A stretch of 64,000 nucleotides of DNA, from NCBI RefSeq assembly GCF_017348835.2, contig NZ_CP071375.1. One strand, 5' to 3'. Positions 3,152 to 55,065 of the stretch are shown here, piece after piece. The translations under genes were made by a program, and so were the position numbers. The stretch is from Escherichia coli (lineage in GTDB: Bacteria > Pseudomonadota > Gammaproteobacteria > Enterobacterales > Enterobacteriaceae). The notes under the pieces are model-generated. The model was not told the DNA's origin. It did not search any database and saw only the letters and a list, made by a program, of their open reading frames with translations. Position 1 is the first letter of the stretch; each line of letters starts with the position of its first letter.

Positions 3152-3919
3152 TTACGCCATCCCATCATGTTTATGTTGCTGTTGTGCGTGTTCCGTTTTG
3201 AACTCCGCCAGCAACCTTGCTTGCTCTTCAGTCAGAGCCAGGTTTTCCAGAAGTTCAGGTCTTCTAAGCCAGGTACGGCCCAGCGACTGTTTCAAACGCC
3301 AGCGACGTATCTCGGCATGGTTGCCCGACAGTAACACTGGCGGAACTTCCATCCCTTCTAACACCTCAGGCCGCGTATAGTGCGGGCAATCCAGCAATCC
3401 TTCAGCAAAGGAATCTTCCGTTGCCGAGGCTTCATGTCCCAGTACTCCCGGAATAAACCGGGAAACGGAGTCAATCAGCGTCATTGCTGGTAACTCACCA
3501 CCACTGAGAACGTAATCGCCGATTGACCATTCTTCGTCAATTTCGGTTTGGATCACGCGCTCATCTATACCTTCGTAGCGACCGCACACCAGAATCAATT
3601 TTTGATTCGTTGCCAGTTCGCTGACGCCCGCTTGATCAAGCTTGCGTCCCTGTGGTGAAAGATAAATCACCTTTGCGCCTTCACCCGCCGCGGCTTTTGC
3701 TGCATGAATGGCGTCCCGCAAGGGTTGCACCATCATTAACATCCCCGGTCCGCCGCCGTAAGGACGATCGTCCACGGTACGGTGCCGGTCATGCGTGAAA
3801 TCGCGAGGACTCCAGCTCTGGATGCTCAGCAGGCCATTTTTAACTGCCCGGCCAGTTACCCCGTAATCGGTAATTGCGCGGAACATTTCAGGAAACAGGC
3901 TAATTATGCCAATCCACAT
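3152..3919 (-). CDS. trmD: tRNA (guanine37-N1)-methyltransferase
   Basis: 255 aa, [13 protein letters not shown]... classic TrmD N-terminus; operon context. Confidence 0.97.
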
Positions 3920-3949
3920 AGCGCCGTCTTTTACCGTTTATCCGGTGGT

Positions 3950-4498
3950 TTAAAAACCAGGATCCCAATCTACTTCGATTGAACGAGTAGTGAGATCGAC
4001 TTTCTTGATAACCTGCCCATCGAGGAACGGTACGAGACGTTCCTTGATACCAAACGCATCTTTCAGGTTTGCCTTAATGACGAGAACGTCATTGGATCCG
4101 GTTTCCATCATATCGACGACTTTACCGAGATCGTAGCCTTCAGTGGTTACTACCTGGCAGCCCATCAGGTCTTTCCAGTAGTAGTCACCCTCTTCAAGCT
4201 GAGGCAGCTGCGATGAATCCACGACAATTTCACAATTTGTCAGCAGGTTCGCCGCATCACGATCGTCAACGCCTTTCAGCTTGATGATCATGTCCTGATT
4301 GTGGTGCTTCCAGCTTTCCAGCTGGACTTGCTGCCACTGACCCGCCTTCTGGATAAACCAGGGCTGATAGTCAAAAATGCTTTCGGCGTCTTCGGTGGAA
4401 GAAAACACTCTGAGCCACCCACGAATACCGTAAGACGAACCCATTTTTCCCAAAACGATGGGATCAACAGGTGCTTGCGCGGTGAGTTGTTTGCTCAT
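3950..4498 (-). CDS. rimM: Ribosome maturation factor RimM
   Basis: ORF 3950-4507; start chosen at [10 protein letters not shown] (182 aa) by recalled RimM N-terminus. Confidence 0.93.
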
Positions 4499-4516
4499 CA
4501 TGACCACCGTGACAGA

Positions 4517-4843
<327 letters not shown>

Positions 4844-13846: not shown

Positions 13847-14060
13847 ACCTGCACTCCAATTATTGACCAGTTCCTCACCGCGCCTCCCTCTCCGGCGGCG
13901 CGAATGAACATCTTATTGGTTATCACATCCGACACAAATGTTGCCATTCCATTGCTTAATCGAATAAAAATCAGGCTACATGGGTGCTAAATCTTTAACG
14001 ATAACGCCATTGAGGCTGGTCATGGTGCTCATAAATCTGGTATACTTACCTTTACACATT

Positions 14061-14423
14061 GGGGCTGATTCTGGATTCGACGGGATTTGCGAAACCCAAG
14101 GTGCATGCCGAGGGGCGGTTGGCCTCGTAAAAAGCCGCAAAAAATAGTCGCAAACGACGAAAACTACGCTTTAGCAGCTTAATAACCTGCTTAGAGCCCT
14201 CTCTCCCTAGCCTCCGCTCTTAGGACGGGGATCAAGAGAGGTCAAACCCAAAAGAGATCGCGTGGAAGCCCTGCCTGGGGTTGAAGCGTTAAAACTTAAT
14301 CAGGCTAGTTTGTTAGTGGCGTGTCCGTCCGCAGCTGGCAAGCGAATGTAAAGACTGACTAAGCATGTAGTACCGAGGACGTAGGAATTTCGGACGCGGG
14401 TTCAACTCCCGCCAGCTCCACCA
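14061..14423 (+). ncRNA. ssrA: tmRNA (SsrA), 363 nt, ending in CCA
   Basis: Starts GGGGCTGATTCTGGATTCGACGGG, contains tag-reading-frame region and tRNA-like 3' end GGTTCAACTCCCGCCAGCTCCACCA. Confidence 0.97.
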
Positions 14424-14550
14424 ATCATGATTGGACGGTGTAAGGACAACACCAACAAAAACAGGAAGTTAGCAGTCTCAGCAGGACACCGACCAGACGG
14501 TGAGGAGACAAAAAAGGATACGCAAAGGAGCCGCGGCTCCTGGCGACATG

Positions 14551-14575
14551 AAAGCCCACAGATGTGGGCTTTTTC
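14551..14575 (+). terminator. Intrinsic terminator downstream of ssrA, just past the ypjA stop
   Basis: GCCCAC-AGAT-GTGGGC hairpin followed by TTTTT. Confidence 0.6.
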
Positions 14576-14583
14576 GTTGATGG

Positions 14584-17500
14584 TCAGAACGACCAGTTCA
14601 CACCAGCCACCGCGTTCCACGGGGATTCCACATCGGCACCGTTGCTATACCCCACCCCGAGATGCCCGCTTAACGTACTGCTGAATGAGGCTTTAATACC
14701 TGCCTGGTATATTCCACGTCTGCCCGACAAATCATTGACGAAATTACCGTCATTATTCACCTTCACCCGGTTATCATCGACAAATTCTTTGCGCACAGCC
14801 GCCTTCAGCCACGGCTCAACTTCCATACCGTTCCCCAGACGCATGTTGTAACTCAGCGTTGCACCCAGTTCACGATATATACTGCGGGTATCGACTGATT
14901 TCGATTCCATGCCATTGGATAAATGATATTCGGGGTTATCAGCGGTGAACCCCGTTAACGATGCATACGGCGTCAGGTTCCAGTTACCATCAGTAAATCG
15001 CATCCCGGTTTCAATGTGACCGCCCAGCCCGTTGCTGTGGTAACTGCCATTGGCGGCTCCACCGCTGCTCATTTTACCGGCTACGTTACTTTCAAAACGG
15101 TTCAGCTTCACGACACCGTCCAGATAGAAACCACTTTCATGTTCCCAACTGGCATAGCCGCCCAGAGAATAACTGCCCACACTGCCATGTCCTCCGCGAT
15201 CAAAACCGATATGTGAATGGGAATAACCCATAAAAGCGCCCAGCGTCGCAATCCCCTCAGGAATATCATTACGGCTGTCGATCCCCACTGTCATTCCGGT
15301 CAGCGTCTGCTCAAACCCGGCCCCCGCATCGGTGGTGACATTATTACGGGTGTTATACGTCGCCCCCCAGACATTATTGTTGTGTGAACTCGCTTTCATT
15401 ATGTTCAACCGCTCGCGAATACTGTTTAGCTCAGCATCAAATACCAACGGTAATGTTGCTGCCATATTGAGTACGGCTGCGGTAGAAGGCGTGATGCGTT
15501 TCTCCGGAACGGGTGTCGGCGTTGGCTCGGGAGTCGGGTCTGGTTTCGGATCCGGTTTTGGGTCTGGTTTTGGATCCGGCTTCGGATTTGGGTTGGGATT
15601 TGGGTTGGGATCCGGGTTGGGTTTGACATCATTGGTCAGGTTCCAGTTGCTGTTGCCATCGCTTTTCAGGACATACTCATAGGTCCCAAGATCAACGAAA
15701 CCGCCAGTATTGCCCAGCGAAAACGAAGCATCCCCTCCCCCTGTTTTCACCAGCGTCATCGCGTCGTCAGACTGAGGACTGACGCCGGTATCCTGAACAA
15801 AGATTTTAAAATTACCAGTGGCGTTGTTGCTGACGACCAGTTGATCACCGCGGGAGCCAGCAACGTTGGTATGCAGGTAGAAATTACCGCTACCGGAAAG
15901 TTCATTGGTTGTCAGCGTATTGTAGATACCGTTAGTTGTGGCAGGCGCTGCTGTTTGTGCTGATAAATAAACATCACCGTCGTTGAGTAGCAAACTGTTT
16001 ACTCTATATTCGCAGTTGCTGGTACCTGCACAGGAATTATTGCTGTTAAGCCAGACACTGCCCCGGCTGGCAGCCATCAGGTCGGCAAGCGTTGTATCGA
16101 CGCCATTTCCCAGAGTTAATGCCGCGCTATCGGTAATCCGGACCGCCCCTACGAGTTTAACTGGCGTAACATTATCCCGTGGCGTCATTAACGACAGGCT
16201 TCCTGTCGCGCCACTGACCGATGCATCCGCCAGCGTACCTGCGTAGACGATTGCCGTACCGCCAGCGACCTGGAGATCTTCTGCCCGGGCCAGAGCCTGA
16301 AACTCATCTTTTGACCGCCCAAGGGTATATTGCCCGCCAGAGTTAACCTTTGTAGCGGAGTCCTGACCCAGGTTTTGCATTGCACCACCCTTGCCAACCG
16401 TGGAGTAGCGAGCTTCGGTACCTGCTAATACCAATAAATTACCACCATTTTCCAGCAACATATTGGTCGCTAAATTTCCGGCAATGGAAAAGGTGCCGTA
16501 CTGGTGAGTACCGCTGATTTCAATACCGTTAGCTGTGCTCGTCTGGAGAGCGGCACCGCTGTTCTGGACGATATCTGTCGCTTTGCCATTATCATTGACT
16601 GTCAGCGTACCGCCTTCATTTATCGTTGTTTTTATTGCCTCACCGTTAGCCGAAACTGTTTGTATTCCGCCGTCGTTAATCGTTGTCTCATTCGCCACAC
16701 CCTCGACGATTTGTTCGCCGCCGGTGAGCGTCGTGCCTGTCGCAGTGGCTTTTATTTTGACGATCTCCCGTCCGCCCGTATTGACCTGTGTTTTGGCGGA
16801 AGTGGTGTCTGACTCCACGGTTAACACGCCGCCATTTGCCAGCAGGATATTGTTCGCCGCATCCTGCTCGATGCTGAACACGACGCCATCTGCGCGTGTC
16901 CCTGTGACACGCGTCGCCTTGGTGGTTGCAACCAACGCGCCCTGGCTACTCTGCTGTATCCCCGTTGCGCTGCCTTTCTCCCGCACATCGAGTGTGCCGC
17001 CGTCATTAAGCACCGAGTTTTCAGCCAGACCGCCCTCATTAACTACCTGTGAACCGCCATTAATAATGGAACCTTCCGCTGTCCCGTTTGCCATAATTTG
17101 TTGTAGGCCAGAGACGATATCGGTGTTGATTGCCTTACCATAACTCTGAACGGTTTGCGTGCCACCATTGATGTGTGTTTTATCTGTTGACCCACCATCA
17201 ACAATTTGTTCACCACTTTCGAAATTTGCCTCAGTGGCTAAACCATATACCGTTTGCTTGCCACCTTTGATATTTGCTTTATCAGAAGTGGCACTGGCAT
17301 ATATTGTTTGGGTGCCCGCACTATTAAGTACAGTGCCAACATCTTTTCCATAAACATCCATTTTGCCGTTGACATTAATAATCGTATCAACTGCCCGGGA
17401 ACCAGTGACGACTGTTAATGAGCCAGCGTTTTCCAGCACTACATTTTTAGCTTCTGAATTCCTGATGTAGAAAGCATCACCATAACTGTTGGTTCCTTCG

Positions 17501-19170
17501 ATAAGTGTTCCGGAAGTCGTGGAAGCAATTAATGCGCCGCCGGATTGTTGCTCAACATGCTTAGCCTCACCACCGTCCTGAACCTCCAGAACGCCGCCAT
17601 GATTAAGTCTGGTGGTATCTGTTTTGGCCTCCTTCTGGACAATCAGCTTACCGCCAGCATCAATGGTAGTATTTTTCGCCGAGGTTTTAGCCACTACCGT
17701 CAATTCGCCGGTATTTTCCAGCACAACATAATTAGCCTCCCCTCCGGTAATAGTGAAGTGAGAGAGCTTGTTGTATCCTTCGATATCAGTCCCTGCGCCC
17801 GTGTTGGCAACTAAAGCACTGCCCGTCTCCTGGTTAACCCCATGTGCAATACCGCCGGTATAGACAATCAGCGAGCCTCCGGCGCTAATATTGCTGCCAG
17901 TTGCCGTACCATCTTTCTCAACAACCTGGCGGCTCCCAGAGGAGATATTCGTCGTGTCAGCTTTCCCGCCGCTCTTGATATTTTGCGTTCCACTGTTGAT
18001 ATTGGTGCCCGTGGCAATACCATGATTATTAATATTCTGTGTGCCACCATTAATTATGGTATTTGTCGCGTTTCCGGCAACATCCATAACCCCGCCATTA
18101 TCTATTCGGGTAGCATCAGCTTTAGCATTCGTTAAAACTGACATTGTTCCTTTATCTTTAATAATCGTCTTGTTTGCCGAACCATATGCGTTTATGTCTA
18201 AATGACCACCGTGTTCCAGCAACACATTGTCTGCAACGTGATTGTGGATGGAGAATGCCCCTTCACTATTCGTACCGCTCACCGTCGTACCGTTAGTGTT
18301 TGTTTTTAAAATTGCACCATCGTGCTGGGTAACATTTGTTGCCGTACCACCACTAACATCAAGCACGCCACCGGAATAAACTTCAATAACATCCGAGGTG
18401 CTGGTGTTATCAACAATTTGCGTGCCACCAGCATAGATCTGCGTATTTTTTGCCGTTGACTTACTATTCAGAGACTGAGTTCCGCCTTCAATCGTGTTGT
18501 TCAGCGCACGGCTCTCATATACTCTTTGCTCACCGCCATTTTTAATGGTGGTTGTTTCTACTGTGCTCTGTTCAACATACTGTCGACCACCATTTATGGT
18601 TGTGTTCGTTGCCAGACTTCCTTGCGTGATGTCCTGAGAGCCAGACTTATTTATCGTTGTACTGTCGACATGCCCCTGAGTTGTTACTCGTTGGCTGCCA
18701 CCATCAATGATTGTTCCATTCGCAGTCCCCCCACTTATGTGTGAATTACCCCCCTTAATTGTCGTTCCATTGCTGATACCACCTGTATAAACGTCCTGAT
18801 TGCCACTCTCGATTATTGTACCTGTGGAAATACCCCCGTCATGAATTGTCTGTCTGCCCCCGTTAATGGTTGTATTATTAGACTGCCCCACATAATTGTT
18901 ATGCCTTGCTACATCTTGATATCCACCAGATTCAATAAGACTTCCATTAGATATCCCACCATAAACATTCTGCTGGCCATGGTTGATAATATGAGTGTTA
19001 TTTGTTGTACCTCGTTCATCTACTCTTTGGGTGCCATCTACAGTCTCATCGTTTACCACACCAATAACATCAGGAGTGAAGGCCGCCATCCCGGGCGGGG
19101 CATATATCAAGGCAGATATCAATAAGGAAAGTACTGAGCGGCGACAATAATGGGGACTGGTCCTGTTCAT
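14584..19170 (-). CDS. ypjA: Large autotransporter adhesin-like protein (YpjA family): signal peptide, long repetitive passenger, Pro-rich linker, C-terminal beta-barrel
   Basis: ORF 14584-19299; start placed at MNRTSPHYCRRSVLSLLISALIYAPPGMAAF (signal peptide) giving about 1528 aa; passenger built of about 19-aa Gly/Thr/Asn-rich repeats; barrel ends ...NWSF. Confidence 0.85.
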   Translation of the reverse strand: MNRTSPHYCRRSVLSLLISALIYAPPGMAAFTPDVIGVVNDETVDGTQRVDERGTTNNTHIINHGQQNVYGGISNGSLIESGGYQDVARHNNYVGQSNNTTINGGRQTIHDGGISTGTIIESGNQDVYTGGISNGTTIKGGNSHISGGTANGTIIDGGSQRVTTQGHVDSTTINKSGSQDITQGSLATNTTINGGRQYVEQSTVETTTIKNGGEQRVYESRALNNTIEGGTQSLNSKSTAKNTQIYAGGTQIVDNTSTSDVIEVYSGGVLDVSGGTATNVTQHDGAILKTNTNGTTVSGTNSEGAFSIHNHVADNVLLEHGGHLDINAYGSANKTIIKDKGTMSVLTNAKADATRIDNGGVMDVAGNATNTIINGGTQNINNHGIATGTNINSGTQNIKSGGKADTTNISSGSRQVVEKDGTATGSNISAGGSLIVYTGGIAHGVNQETGSALVANTGAGTDIEGYNKLSHFTITGGEANYVVLENTGELTVVAKTSAKNTTIDAGGKLIVQKEAKTDTTRLNHGGVLEVQDGGEAKHVEQQSGGALIASTTSGTLIEGTNSYGDAFYIRNSEAKNVVLENAGSLTVVTGSRAVDTIINVNGKMDVYGKDVGTVLNSAGTQTIYASATSDKANIKGGKQTVYGLATEANFESGEQIVDGGSTDKTHINGGTQTVQSYGKAINTDIVSGLQQIMANGTAEGSIINGGSQVVNEGGLAENSVLNDGGTLDVREKGSATGIQQSSQGALVATTKATRVTGTRADGVVFSIEQDAANNILLANGGVLTVESDTTSAKTQVNTGGREIVKIKATATGTTLTGGEQIVEGVANETTINDGGIQTVSANGEAIKTTINEGGTLTVNDNGKATDIVQNSGAALQTSTANGIEISGTHQYGTFSIAGNLATNMLLENGGNLLVLAGTEARYSTVGKGGAMQNLGQDSATKVNSGGQYTLGRSKDEFQALARAEDLQVAGGTAIVYAGTLADASVSGATGSLSLMTPRDNVTPVKLVGAVRITDSAALTLGNGVDTTLADLMAASRGSVWLNSNNSCAGTSNCEYRVNSLLLNDGDVYLSAQTAAPATTNGIYNTLTTNELSGSGNFYLHTNVAGSRGDQLVVSNNATGNFKIFVQDTGVSPQSDDAMTLVKTGGGDASFSLGNTGGFVDLGTYEYVLKSDGNSNWNLTNDVKPNPDPNPNPNPNPKPDPKPDPKPDPKPDPTPEPTPTPVPEKRITPSTAAVLNMAATLPLVFDAELNSIRERLNIMKASSHNNNVWGATYNTRNNVTTDAGAGFEQTLTGMTVGIDSRNDIPEGIATLGAFMGYSHSHIGFDRGGHGSVGSYSLGGYASWEHESGFYLDGVVKLNRFESNVAGKMSSGGAANGSYHSNGLGGHIETGMRFTDGNWNLTPYASLTGFTADNPEYHLSNGMESKSVDTRSIYRELGATLSYNMRLGNGMEVEPWLKAAVRKEFVDDNRVKVNNDGNFVNDLSGRRGIYQAGIKASFSSTLSGHLGVGYSNGADVESPWNAVAGVNWSF
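15527..15631 (-). repeat. In-frame tandem hexanucleotide repeat tract inside ypjA encoding a (Pro-Asn/Asp/Lys)n linker
   Basis: DNA shows repeating ggatccggttttgggtctggtttt... units; translation PNPDPNPNPNPKPDPKPDPKPDPKPDPTPEPTPTP. Confidence 0.75.
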
Positions 19171-19552
19171 AAATTTCATCCTCTGAAAAGTGAATACTGA
19201 GTAGCGTTTAAGCAACCTTAGCTCTGCTGCAACATCAGCCCACAGGCACCAGACCAGGGGATTCATCCTGAAGAGACAGCGCAAGTGTATTGTGTTCACC
19301 GCTCATCAAAGACATCATGATGAAATGATGATATTCCGCATAAGAATGAGTCATTTTTTAAACGCAGTGCGCTGAAGTGTGGTTGGATAAAAAAGTCAAT
19401 CTATTCAGGAAACACGGGCGTATTCTTTTCTTTCGACATTCAGGCAGTCGGCAAAATAAAATGATTTACATAATCGTTTCTGATGAATATCTTCTGCTCA
19501 CATAAAAATCACACAATAACTTTGATATCGCAGATTGTTTTACTTCTACAGC

Positions 19553-19745
19553 ATTCGTCCCCCCATTGTTGGGGAAATATAGATTGGGCCAGAGCTCGAA
19601 AGTTAATACCACGTTTGCACAACTCCTCCAACAGCACGACAAGATGCCACATACTGCGCACCAGTCGGTTCAGTTTACAGACTAGCAGTGCGTACCCTGC
19701 CGATAATGTCCTGAGCAGTTTTTTCAGTCCGGACCTCCTGCCACG
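19553..19745 (-). pseudogene. pinH: Internal fragment of a Pin/Hin/Gin-family serine DNA invertase (remnant, no start, no catalytic N-terminus, no HTH)
   Basis: Minus-strand translation RRSGLKKLLRTLSAGYALLVCKLNRLVRSMWHLVVLLEELCKRGINFRALAQSI aligns with the invertase core ...[45 protein letters not shown]; flanked by stop codons. Confidence 0.6.
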
Positions 19746-20104
19746 GTTTTACGTTGAAGAGGTAACCCTGAGCACGCAGTTCTTCAGTCAGGCGTGGTGC
19801 ACCGTAACGCTGTTATTGCTGGGTAAGATCAAAAAACTTTCAGGCAGCTAAGGAAAGTTGAACCAGACATTAGATGAAATATTTCAACCAATTACAGCAC
19901 TAATTCAACACCGCCAGATCGCCAAATAAATCAAGGGGTTACGTGAAAGTGCAGCCCCTTTTTCTTTGGTAGTGACAGCAAAATGGATGTAGTGTGAAGA
20001 ATAATCCCGTTTAATCAATCAATAATACATATTGTTTCAATCTACGTTATTATCTCTTTGTAAAAATTGCCATTTATTCATCATTGAAAACTGCTTTTAG
20101 AACT

Positions 20105-21559
20105 TTATACAATAGAACTATTCACAACAGGACTATTCTCAACAGGATCATCCTCAGAGGAACTATCATCAAAGTCATCATCCATAAATAAAATATCATC
20201 GAATGGTGCCACGCCCGTGATTAGTTTTATTTTATTATTACGATCAGACAAGACTCCATTTAAACCGTTTTCGCTGACGGATTTTAATAATTTCTCATAA
20301 CTCTTATTGTCATCAGGCACATTAAAAATACACGGTGCATCAACATCAAACAATGAAGTTCTCCAATTCACATTTTTAATATCATAGTTACGGAAGTTCT
20401 GTCCAGAAAAGAAGCATCCCTTAAAATCCAACCCACCTAAATTATATAAACCACCCTCTCCTTTTTGTAGAGTAATATTAATTCTGGCTATCTCCCGGAC
20501 AAAACTTCCTTTTTTATATTTGAATACCGTTTCAAGATTTTCCCCAGACAGCTTGACTTCTGGGAATAATTTGAAATTAAACCCTACATCATTATTATTC
20601 AAAGTAGATGAACGGAAGATGGAAAAAGCTTGCAGCGCTGAATTATAGCTTTCGATTTTATCTTGAGGCTGCGCTCTTGGTAAAAATATATAGCAGCACT
20701 CATAAAAATTGAATAAACGTTCTGATGAATTTCCATTTTTATCAAATAATATCCCCCGGAACTCCTTCACAAAGGCATCCGTTATTTTTTGAATATCTAT
20801 GGTGTGTTCCTTTGACTCTGACAAAGATGGAGCCTGTTGAAGTGCATTGCTCATCTGGTTAAGGAACATCTGCATTTCTTTCAATTTATCTCCATAGTGG
20901 CCTTTAACTTGCTGAGAGTTTTTAGTTACAGGTGAAACCTTATCTATTTGGTTGTCATATAAATTACGTGGTTCCATAGAGACATTTGGTTGCGTTTCTA
21001 AAATAACACTACGCGTACTACCTGGCTTTAATGAATCAACATGAAACTCACTTTTTCTTATATTGCCGAATAGGGTCTGTTCATCTCTCTTAGCGGATTG
21101 AAAAAAATGATCAACATTATTTTTATTCGATGACAGGTCAGTTTCAGAAACCGCATTTTCTTTGTTCTCCAGCTTTAGTTTAATGAGAAGATCTTCCCAG
21201 ACCTGCTTGCTTAAACATACTACGTCAGGCTCACCATCAGTAACTAACTCTTCATTATTATCAAAGTATACGTTGAATACTTTTAAGTTATTTTCATCAA
21301 CATCATATTTAATACGTTTTAATTGCTCTCCAGATCCCATAATGACAAAGGCGTTGCCTTCATGATATATACATTCAGACATCATTTTTTGTAAAGTTTC
21401 AAGAGCACCGCGATACGTCGCTGAGGCAGCTTCCTTACAAATTAATTTTATAATACTATGAGCTAGTAGCTCCATGGGGTTGGAAGAATTGTTTCCATTA
21501 CAATTCCTGCTAGCAAAAAATGCGCTAGTGTTAAGTTCGTTGCTTTTACTAACTAACAT
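20105..21559 (-). CDS. Hypothetical 484-aa protein of unknown function (probably the YpjC family), low-GC gene with C-terminal pentapeptide-like repeats and acidic tail
   Basis: Long ORF in very AT-rich DNA; residues about 395-430 read LDFKG-CFFSG-QNFRN-YDIKN-VNWRT-SLFDV (x-D/N-hydrophobic-x-x periodicity); C-terminus DDDFDDSSSEDDPVENS; no signal peptide or TM evident. Confidence 0.6.
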   Translation of the reverse strand: MLVSKSNELNTSAFFASRNCNGNNSSNPMELLAHSIIKLICKEAASATYRGALETLQKMMSECIYHEGNAFVIMGSGEQLKRIKYDVDENNLKVFNVYFDNNEELVTDGEPDVVCLSKQVWEDLLIKLKLENKENAVSETDLSSNKNNVDHFFQSAKRDEQTLFGNIRKSEFHVDSLKPGSTRSVILETQPNVSMEPRNLYDNQIDKVSPVTKNSQQVKGHYGDKLKEMQMFLNQMSNALQQAPSLSESKEHTIDIQKITDAFVKEFRGILFDKNGNSSERLFNFYECCYIFLPRAQPQDKIESYNSALQAFSIFRSSTLNNNDVGFNFKLFPEVKLSGENLETVFKYKKGSFVREIARINITLQKGEGGLYNLGGLDFKGCFFSGQNFRNYDIKNVNWRTSLFDVDAPCIFNVPDDNKSYEKLLKSVSENGLNGVLSDRNNKIKLITGVAPFDDILFMDDDFDDSSSEDDPVENSPVVNSSIV

Positions 21560-22308: not shown

Positions 22309-22384
22309 TTGGTGGCCCTTGCTGGACTTGAACCAGCGACCAGGCGATTATGAGTCGCCTGCTCTAACCACTGAGCTAAAGGGC
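22309..22384 (-). tRNA. ileY: tRNA-Ile (anticodon CAU, lysidine-modified, AUA-reading)
   Basis: Minus strand reads GGCCCTTTAGCTCAGTGG...CGACTCATAATCG...GGTTCAAGTCCAGCAAGGGCCACCA; cloverleaf with CAT anticodon. Confidence 0.92.
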
Positions 22385-22944
22385 CTTGAGTGTGCAATAA
22401 CAATACTTATAAACCACGCAATAAACATGATGATCATATGATGTAAATAACAGATTTTTATGCGTTCTCATTCATCCTTGCTCGTCATTACACGCGACAT
22501 AAAACCCGACACCGCCTCTATTCGCAAAGTCGATACTCGCAGTCAACAAGCAAATGTTAATAATTAACACTATCTATAGTTATCATCGATTCAATGATAC
22601 TTTGTAATGATTTTGTATCTAATAATATAACTTTATTACATTAGCTGAAGAGTTTTCGCATCATTATGATATCTGTTACTTTTCACGCCATAAAAATAAA
22701 CTTCATATAGCAATATATTCTTTCATAGATCTTATTCTGCTAATCATTAGTTTCGTATGAGCGATTTTTGACAGTTGCCTCTCCAGACCACATCGATAAT
22801 TAAAAAAACAGATTTAAGCATTATCCTTTTCCATATAAATATTGGATAAAAGTAGGACATCTGTTTGCAATTACTTTCACAACAATTAAACATTTTTATG
22901 TTTCCATATACACCATATTACTCTACCATTAGAGGAACTTTATT

Positions 22945-54972: not shown

Positions 54973-55065
54973 TGGCGGTGAGGCGGGGATTCGAACCCCG
55001 GATGCAGCTTTTGACCGCATACTCCCTTAGCAGGGGAGCGCCTTCAGCCTCTCGGCCACCTCACC
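54973..55065 (-). tRNA. serV: tRNA-Ser (anticodon GCU), long variable arm
   Basis: Reverse complement GGTGAGGTGGCCGAGAGGCTGAAGGCGCTCCCCTGCTAAGGGAGTATGCGGTCAAAAGCTGCATCCGGGGTTCGAATCCCCGCCTCACCGCCA. Confidence 0.93.

Follow-up and report, generated by a model that had tools for sequence, protein, structure and literature searches.

YpjA of Escherichia coli K-12 (b2647) and EhaD of enterohaemorrhagic E. coli (EHEC) O157:H7 are products of one gene and have been implicated in surface attachment: a review (PMC3796261) describes YfaL, YpjA and YcgV as active both in biofilm formation and in initial adhesion, YpjA has been grouped with the biofilm-forming proteins AIDA-I, Ag43 and TibA (PMC9289746), and EhaD increases biofilm in O157:H7 (PMC12547504). 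Here we describe this gene, ypjA (ehaD), in a 64,000-nucleotide (nt) stretch of E. coli DNA (NCBI RefSeq assembly GCF_017348835.2, contig NZ_CP071375.1), hereafter the window. An original prediction made from the sequence of the window held that no function is known for the protein, a statement superseded by the adhesion and biofilm roles given to YpjA/EhaD in these reviews. It also drew attention to a proline-rich linker encoded by short tandem DNA repeats, which we find to be length-polymorphic at the species level and neither hypervariable nor phase-variable; it is a slowly evolving spacer.

The window gene shares its ssrA-side position and domain order with K-12 ypjA and EHEC ehaD. Its spacer has 40 residues and is of the O157 type, as against 38 residues in K-12, and unlike K-12 the window has no CP4-57 prophage between ssrA and ypjA. 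TibA, the self-associating protein of enterotoxigenic E. coli (ETEC), is an AIDA-I family member that presents the same order of 19-amino-acid (aa) repeat passenger, junction, Pro-rich domain and membrane domain; in TibA, residues 627-677 form the Pro-rich domain, which stands between the junction and the C-terminal domain (PMC3835316), and a published tree (PMC12399667) places EhaD in a group with TibA. The YpjA passenger is about three times longer than that of TibA, the protein for which self-association is known, and neither a heptosyltransferase of the Aah/TibC type nor any other glycosyltransferase is annotated in the flanks of ypjA in strain PE164, where 18 features lie within 8 kb on either side. 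Scores against the NCBIfam models auto_Ag43 (331 bits) and auto_AIDA-I (265 bits) fall short of the equivalog cut-off of 1200; on sequence criteria, YpjA is a relative of Ag43 and AIDA-I and not one of these proteins. In Bordetella, the number of GGXXP/PQP repeats of pertactin varies among isolates and serves for typing (PMC12243275). Pertactin P.69 and YpjA both carry a pertactin-fold junction followed by a Pro-containing repeat, with PQP/GGXXP units in the former and X-Pro dipeptides in the latter, and the YpjA tract, set against the pertactin repeats, bears no sign of amino-acid diversification (ratio of nonsynonymous to synonymous substitution rates, dN/dS, 0.11).

The coding sequence (CDS) lies at 14584..19170 on the minus strand, as do all the ypjA features described below, and encodes an intact protein of 1528 aa plus stop, as established from the list of open reading frames (ORFs) and their translations, from Pfam matches and from its 100% identity to ypjA as annotated in E. 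coli PE164 (WP_153645450.1). The longest form of the ORF begins at a GTG at 19299; the ATG at 19170 sits 8 nt past a GAGGA motif and is therefore the likely start, and it is also the start of the annotated PE164 gene, which the Prokaryotic Genome Annotation Pipeline (PGAP) names YpjA/EhaD. DNA identity to the window allele is 96.1% for K-12 ypjA (3.9% difference overall) and 96.8% for the O157-type allele. Flanked by ssrA (14061-14423) on one side and ileY (22310-22385) on the other, the gene belongs to an orthologue group of 2,435 genomes with 95-100% DNA identity across 4.7 kb, and at least 80% of the ypjA query is found in one aligned place in 2,435 genomes. The locus is thus ypjA (ehaD), which belongs to the accessory genes of the E. 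coli chromosome and encodes an already described, classical type Va autotransporter adhesin of the AIDA-I type.

Profile searches, comparison with solved structures and an AlphaFold2 model all bear out the original call of ypjA as an autotransporter whose passenger is repetitive and whose barrel is preceded by a Pro-rich linker. A 29-aa signal peptide is listed for YpjA (PMC13101318); by inspection, aa 1-29 (MNRTSPHYCRRSVLSLLISALIYAPPGMA; 19084..19170) form a putative Sec signal peptide with a basic n-region (RR), a hydrophobic core and a predicted cleavage between GMA and A. The passenger (aa 30-1056; 16003..19083) consists of about 55 degenerate 18-19-aa β-helix rungs, recognised by their periodicity, by 11 stretches matching Pfam PF16168 (AIDA; E = 9e-138) and by 12 stretches matching the NCBIfam strand-loop-strand repeat TIGR04415, and by sequence it aligns with the solved structures of Ag43 and TibA. 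It is followed by a Pertactin-like junction or autochaperone (aa 1057-1180; 15631..16002), matched by PF03212 (Pertactin) at aa 1057-1179 (E = 4.8e-45) and by pertactin structure 1DAB at aa 1062-1180. The X-Pro spacer (aa 1183-1222; 15505..15624) comes next, then the α-helical plug or linker of the translocator (aa 1228-1258; 15397..15489), and finally a 12-strand outer-membrane β-barrel (aa 1266-1528 plus stop; 14584..15375) that matches PF03797 (Autotransporter) at aa 1267-1506 (E = 5.2e-46) and the NCBIfam autotransporter barrel TIGR01414 (E = 2.9e-97); the BrkA translocator structure 3QQ2 aligns with aa 1246-1528. The barrel, the α-helical linker and the signal peptide assigned by inspection are together the marks of a type Va autotransporter, and the passenger of ~19-aa repeats with a pertactin-type autochaperone at its C-terminus those of an AIDA-I-type adhesin.

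The AlphaFold2 model covers aa 1041-1528 and was built on an alignment of 32 homologues drawn from a protein search, which returned mainly fragments and YejO-type relatives with few full-length YpjA clusters and was also used for linker diversity. It predicts high-confidence β strands at aa 1053-1179, no secondary structure at aa 1185-1221, where the predicted local distance difference test (pLDDT) score stays under 50 (means of 34-37 in blocks of 10 residues), a helix at aa 1228-1258 (model residues 188-218) immediately ahead of the first barrel strand, and 12 long barrel strands of mostly high pLDDT. This order of β end, structureless segment, helix and barrel therefore identifies the tract as a predicted exposed spacer running from the autochaperone to the plug helix. 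The linker reads KPNPDPNPNPNPNPKPDPKPDPKPDPKPDPTPEPTPTPVP, that is, 20 X-Pro dipeptides in which the partner residues alternate among K, D, N and T; the original placement of the repeats at 15527-15631 overlaps this tract, its ends being off by 7 nt and 22 nt. The (Glu-Pro)n(Lys-Pro)n spacer of TonB likewise alternates charged residues and proline in dipeptides, and NCBIfam TonB gives a weak compositional match at aa 1181-1225 (E = 6e-4), far below the cut-off. Charged-residue/Pro sequence of the TonB type is regarded as an extended rod-like spacer. TonB is unrelated and spans the periplasm, in contrast to YpjA on the cell surface, and the likeness is one of composition, not homology. From its position, its composition and the analogy with TibA and TonB, the X-Pro spacer is most likely a stalk.

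Upstream of the spacer, autocorrelation with BLOSUM scores against 200 shuffles gave passenger periodicities at 18 and 19 aa (z = 10.5 and 7.9), and the composition (G 15%, T 13%, N 9%) agrees with the dozens of degenerate Gly/Thr/Asn-rich units of the original prediction; the 1528 aa it assigned to the passenger is correct as a length, but it is that of the whole protein, the passenger covering about aa 30-1180. Self-BLASTP of YpjA gave no off-diagonal matches that would indicate super-repeats. Recombination between passenger units was considered and rejected, as the DNA repeats there are too diverged (61-87% identity over 21-34 nt), and a single 6-bp indel at aa ~324 makes up the whole difference in passenger length among ten alleles. 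The most variable part of ypjA is the N-terminal third of the passenger (18070-19020; gene nt ~150-1100), where nucleotide diversity peaks at 9.6% (gene nt 300-450) and dN is 0.057 with a dN/dS of 0.40; mid-passenger, autochaperone and barrel lie at 0.08-0.16 (barrel 0.13). With dN/dS at 0.08-0.40 over all segments, YpjA is therefore under purifying selection, which argues for its use in nature, and any functional or antigenic diversity is more likely to reside in the fast-evolving N-terminal tip.

At the DNA level, the spacer is less regular than the near-perfect repeats originally described. In the arrays of period 12/24 that Tandem Repeats Finder detects at 15534-15625, no more than 78-83% of positions match, and exact-repeat scans find a sole perfect tandem, a 12-bp unit (ATCCCAACCCAA) present in 2.3 copies over 28 bp (15584..15611). 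The duplication is found in the window, O157-type and L012 alleles; five other alleles (L004, L005, L006, L009 and L010) show a 12-bp gap in its place, the unit is single-copy in K-12-type, 126-bp and 102-bp alleles, and exact-repeat scans of these three types revealed no perfect tandem. Across alleles the tract has a synonymous rate (dS) of 0.21 and a dN/dS of 0.11: the X-Pro pattern is conserved and its codons are scrambled, and the substrate for slippage is therefore removed.

We searched 5,426 complete E. coli genomes with a 301-bp query around the tract and obtained matches in 2,524 genomes (2,525 records), in agreement with the published carriage of ypjA in 44.8% of 227,873 genomes (bioRxiv 10.1101/2024.09.06.611592). 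Tract length, measured from NDV to EKR, was read directly in ten alleles, of which nine are intact and one is frameshifted, and in several partial ones. The window, an O157-type strain and an otter isolate have a tract of 138 bp, K-12 has one of 132 bp, several strains have 126 bp and one has 102 bp; a K-12-like form with an additional 6 bp also reaches 138 bp, and a form shorter by 18 bp occurs in one sampled row. The lengths seen overall are 102, 108, 126, 132 and 138 bp, of which 102 and 108 bp are rare. Species-wide, the ~132-bp class accounts for about 50% of records, the 126-bp class for about 31% and the 138-bp class of the window type for about 16%, the three together making up about 97%. 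In numbers, taken from the identity bands of three reciprocal BLAST searches that fit together, the K-12-type tract region is represented by 1,267 records at 99% identity or more and a further 47 near it, the 126-bp type by ~770-823 records and the window type by ~394 (266 at 99% or more and 128 at 95-99%); the remaining ~40-47 records hold anything else, including genomes that carry only a paralogous gene. The expectation that the tract is length-polymorphic between strains was thus upheld, if only weakly, and a single repeat number in all strains is refuted by the alleles read.

Across ten aligned alleles, every in-frame indel but the 6-bp one in the passenger falls within the tract, which makes up 2.6% of the gene. 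Tract indels measure 6, 12 and 24-30 bp, all in-frame multiples of 6; the 12-bp indel coincides precisely with one of the copies in the perfect duplication, a 30-bp deletion is bounded by CCAAAACC direct repeats, and in the cases read the bounding direct repeats are 8-16 bp long. These indels therefore probably arose by slippage or by short-homology deletion. The slipped-strand mechanism put forward originally thus finds support in the position of the indels between short direct repeats, but the tract is not slippage-prone in the sense of a contingency locus. Every sampled row labelled O157 or O157:H7 has a 301-bp span, and every identifiable K-12 derivative sampled (MG1655, C600, HMS174, MC4100, NEB Turbo and others) a 295-bp span. 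The window allele and the O157-type allele L008 show no differences in three of the four 150-nt windows at gene nt 3451-4050, which include the tract, and two in the fourth; at gene nt 301-600 and 751-1050 the window allele resembles other alleles. Tract classes therefore move by recombination within mosaic genes, and among 5,336 matching records only two are at least 99% identical to the window allele over the full length.

Some genomes carry a shorter ypjA paralog at the ymgD-ymgJ/minE locus, between ymgJ and minE and outside the window, where K-12 retains only a ycgI remnant. The paralog, also annotated as "ypjA" by PGAP, encodes 1,114-1,154 aa (L003 2021-5461, with its tract at 4307-4540; L017 2422-5808). 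It is 87-93% identical to ypjA at its 5' end, shares a middle block and the 3' half, lacks two passenger blocks and has a translocator 97.7% identical to that of YpjA in protein. Its linker is a pure variable-number tandem repeat (VNTR), (AATCCG AACCCA)1-8 followed by (AATCCA)6-15, giving (NP)17-37, and the tract end DPTPEPTPTPVP is common to the paralog and the window allele. In the 60 best-matching genomes we found 16 length classes, with a region of 545-665 bp and all lengths multiples of 6. Lengths differ among related porcine ETEC isolates and agree within the consecutively numbered isolate pairs ETEC4070/4071, ETEC6333/6334 and ETEC4077/4079 and between the duplicate THO-008 records. The paralog VNTR exemplifies the slippage-driven variation of a pure repeat; the tract of ypjA itself is in a different state. 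Two sets of matches at first assigned to ypjA belong to this locus: "9% remnant" matches taken for internal ypjA deletions are the paralogous ycgI remnant, and two records (H89 and H149) taken for a ypjA tract with an additional 114 bp are the paralog.

How the tract varies could be read in several ways. The mechanism implied by the original prediction is that of a contingency-type simple-sequence repeat, in which the adhesin would change length reversibly and at high frequency, and the 6/12-bp periodicity of the DNA, the 6-bp multiples by which strains differ and the true hypervariability of a paralog with the same linker design are all in its favour. Contingency loci are characterised, however, by a long, perfect tract, by a switch of frame or promoter spacing and by variability among close isolates, whereas here the longest perfect tandem is 28 bp and is found in the window but not in the K-12-type, 126-bp or 102-bp alleles, the imperfect arrays match at 78-83% only, three length classes cover about 97% of the 2,525 records, with one tract region shared by 1,267 of them at 99% or more, O157 and K-12 lineages are invariant in the sampled rows, and all changes are in frame, which makes on/off switching impossible. 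We consider such a mechanism very improbable for ypjA; the tract agrees in position and in inter-strain length differences with the class of in-frame, length-variable Pro-rich linkers. In another reading, the spacer resembles the pertactin repeats in being an immunodominant epitope on the surface, and host immunity drives its changes of length and sequence through diversifying (antigenic) selection. This is suggested by the topological place of the spacer right after the pertactin-like domain, the same as that of the PQP region, by the variable repeat numbers used for typing in pertactin (PMC12243275) and by the predicted exposure and lack of structure of the tract. Yet the low dN/dS of the tract alongside a high dS of 0.21 indicates constraint on the X-Pro pattern, its alleles are few and each is common to many lineages, and amino-acid variability is highest in the N-terminal passenger; diversification of this kind is unlikely to explain the tract.

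Nor does it seem at all probable that ypjA is a decaying, functionally silent gene whose indels are neutral debris. Its presence in only 2,524 of 5,426 genomes is consistent with decay, as are the disrupted copies in AR_0162 (L007), SCEC020023 (L011), EC21Z-048 (L013), F765 (L015) and 13P484A (H8), which involve a 1-bp frameshift, insertions of the insertion sequences (IS) IS1, IS2 and IS1203 and a ~1.3-kb deletion of the junction-to-barrel region; a contiguous ypjA is missing in about 3.5% of carriers. But in 2,435 genomes a single aligned place takes in 80% or more of the query, every tract indel is in frame, the dN/dS values from mid-passenger to barrel are unlike those of a pseudogene, and adhesion and biofilm phenotypes are on record (PMC3796261, PMC12547504). 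The repeat signal could also originate from a gene on the opposite strand. A 116-aa antisense ORF (15332-15682, plus strand) spans the tract and reads GSGFGSGFG..., and among the translated small CDSs of a study with transposon reporters is one within K-12 ypjA, "CDS87 in-ypjA" (bioRxiv 10.1101/2024.09.06.611592), whose position and strand are absent from the available part of the preprint text. Since a CCN proline codon is an NGG glycine codon on the other strand, this Gly-rich ORF mirrors the ypjA frame, and the sense-frame dN/dS of 0.11 accounts for the conservation, leaving an antisense origin scarcely conceivable.

The account that we favour, and hold with considerable confidence, is that of a type Va adhesin with an X-Pro spacer whose rare in-frame indels are spread by recombination. 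YpjA would be exported by the Sec system through its 29-aa signal peptide, and the C-terminal 12-strand barrel with its α-helical plug would insert in the outer membrane. The passenger of ~1,150 aa would then be threaded out, folding from the pertactin-like autochaperone upward into a β-helix of ~55 rungs, with the 40-residue X-Pro spacer most likely forming an extended polyproline-II-like rod that keeps the β-helix off the membrane surface. Spacer DNA, made of degenerate CCN-RAN hexamers, has probably undergone rare slippage or deletion between short direct repeats, yielding a few in-frame alleles (28-40 X-Pro residues in those read directly), and homologous recombination then spreads these alleles among lineages inside mosaic genes. 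Synonymous scrambling of the codons for proline and its partners keeps the tract genetically stable. Of these elements, the identity of the gene, the order of its domains, the range of alleles, the places of the indels and the mosaicism are shown by the present data; adhesion and biofilm formation are taken from the literature, and the stalk role is an inference. Several considerations weigh against this account. Class counts derive from BLAST identity bands and samples of 40-60 rows, so that rare or within-lineage variants could be missed, and the length classes count records, not independent indel events. The YpjA phenotypes are those given in reviews, and the spacer may be an epitope or a ligand-binding segment in place of a stalk.

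A further, doubtful suggestion is that the spacer acts as a selectable height dial, in which X-Pro length would set the reach of the β-helix past O-antigen or capsule, a setting frozen in ypjA and tuned by the VNTR in the paralog, with occasional gene conversion between the two. Under such a scheme the paralog (NP)n VNTR would retune adhesin reach on epidemiological time-scales, and gene conversion would explain the paralog-like DPTPEPTPTPVP end and the extra NPNP unit of the window allele.

Upstream of ypjA, a conserved 5' leader and promoter region (19171..19415, minus strand), defined by comparison of ypjA with the paralog, includes an annotated 39-aa ORF (19235-19354). The leader (~250 nt) is about 95% identical between the two genes, as against 87% for the whole 5' block that includes N-terminal coding DNA. 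Within the 39-aa ORF, the start codon changes from ATG in one gene to GTG in the other and the remaining four differences are all nonsynonymous; leader conservation therefore looks regulatory, at the level of DNA or RNA, and not protein-coding. The leader has no Rfam match and folds no better than shuffled sequences (z = 0.12), and an Rfam search of 13900-19800 gave the transfer-messenger RNA (tmRNA) as the sole match. Promoter and terminator scans came out near shuffle expectation and were not used.

The tmRNA gene ssrA (14061-14423, plus strand) ends 160 bp from the ypjA stop, with no insertion between them. The same interval holds CP4-57 prophage genes in K-12 and a different integrase-bearing element in A16 and F765, and the window therefore shows an empty ssrA attachment site. 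On the other side of ypjA, the interval up to a tRNA gene with a CAU anticodon (22310-22385, minus strand), annotated as tRNA-Ile (ileY), holds a recombinase fragment and a low-GC (32-36%) gene at 20105-21559 (minus strand) for a 484-aa protein annotated as DUF5507; together they have the look of what is left of an old island beside ypjA. The 18 published primers of a generic E. coli scheme for multiple-locus VNTR analysis (MLVA; GECM-10), at up to 3 mismatches, target neither ypjA in the window nor any compared locus, the paralog included, and the sole match in the window is CVN016-R with 2 mismatches at 55042, far from ypjA.

For the window itself these results carry little weight, as the gene is annotated, the adhesin family is well studied and a phenotype has been reported; the polymorphism is real but ordinary, in a gene that was already known. 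The more general lesson comes from the contrast between ypjA and its paralog within one species: it is the purity of a repeat, not its periodicity, that predicts variability, and a Pro-rich coding tract can be periodic without being hypermutable. The paralog VNTR, in turn, could be used as a marker for typing, or treated as a natural experiment in spacer length.

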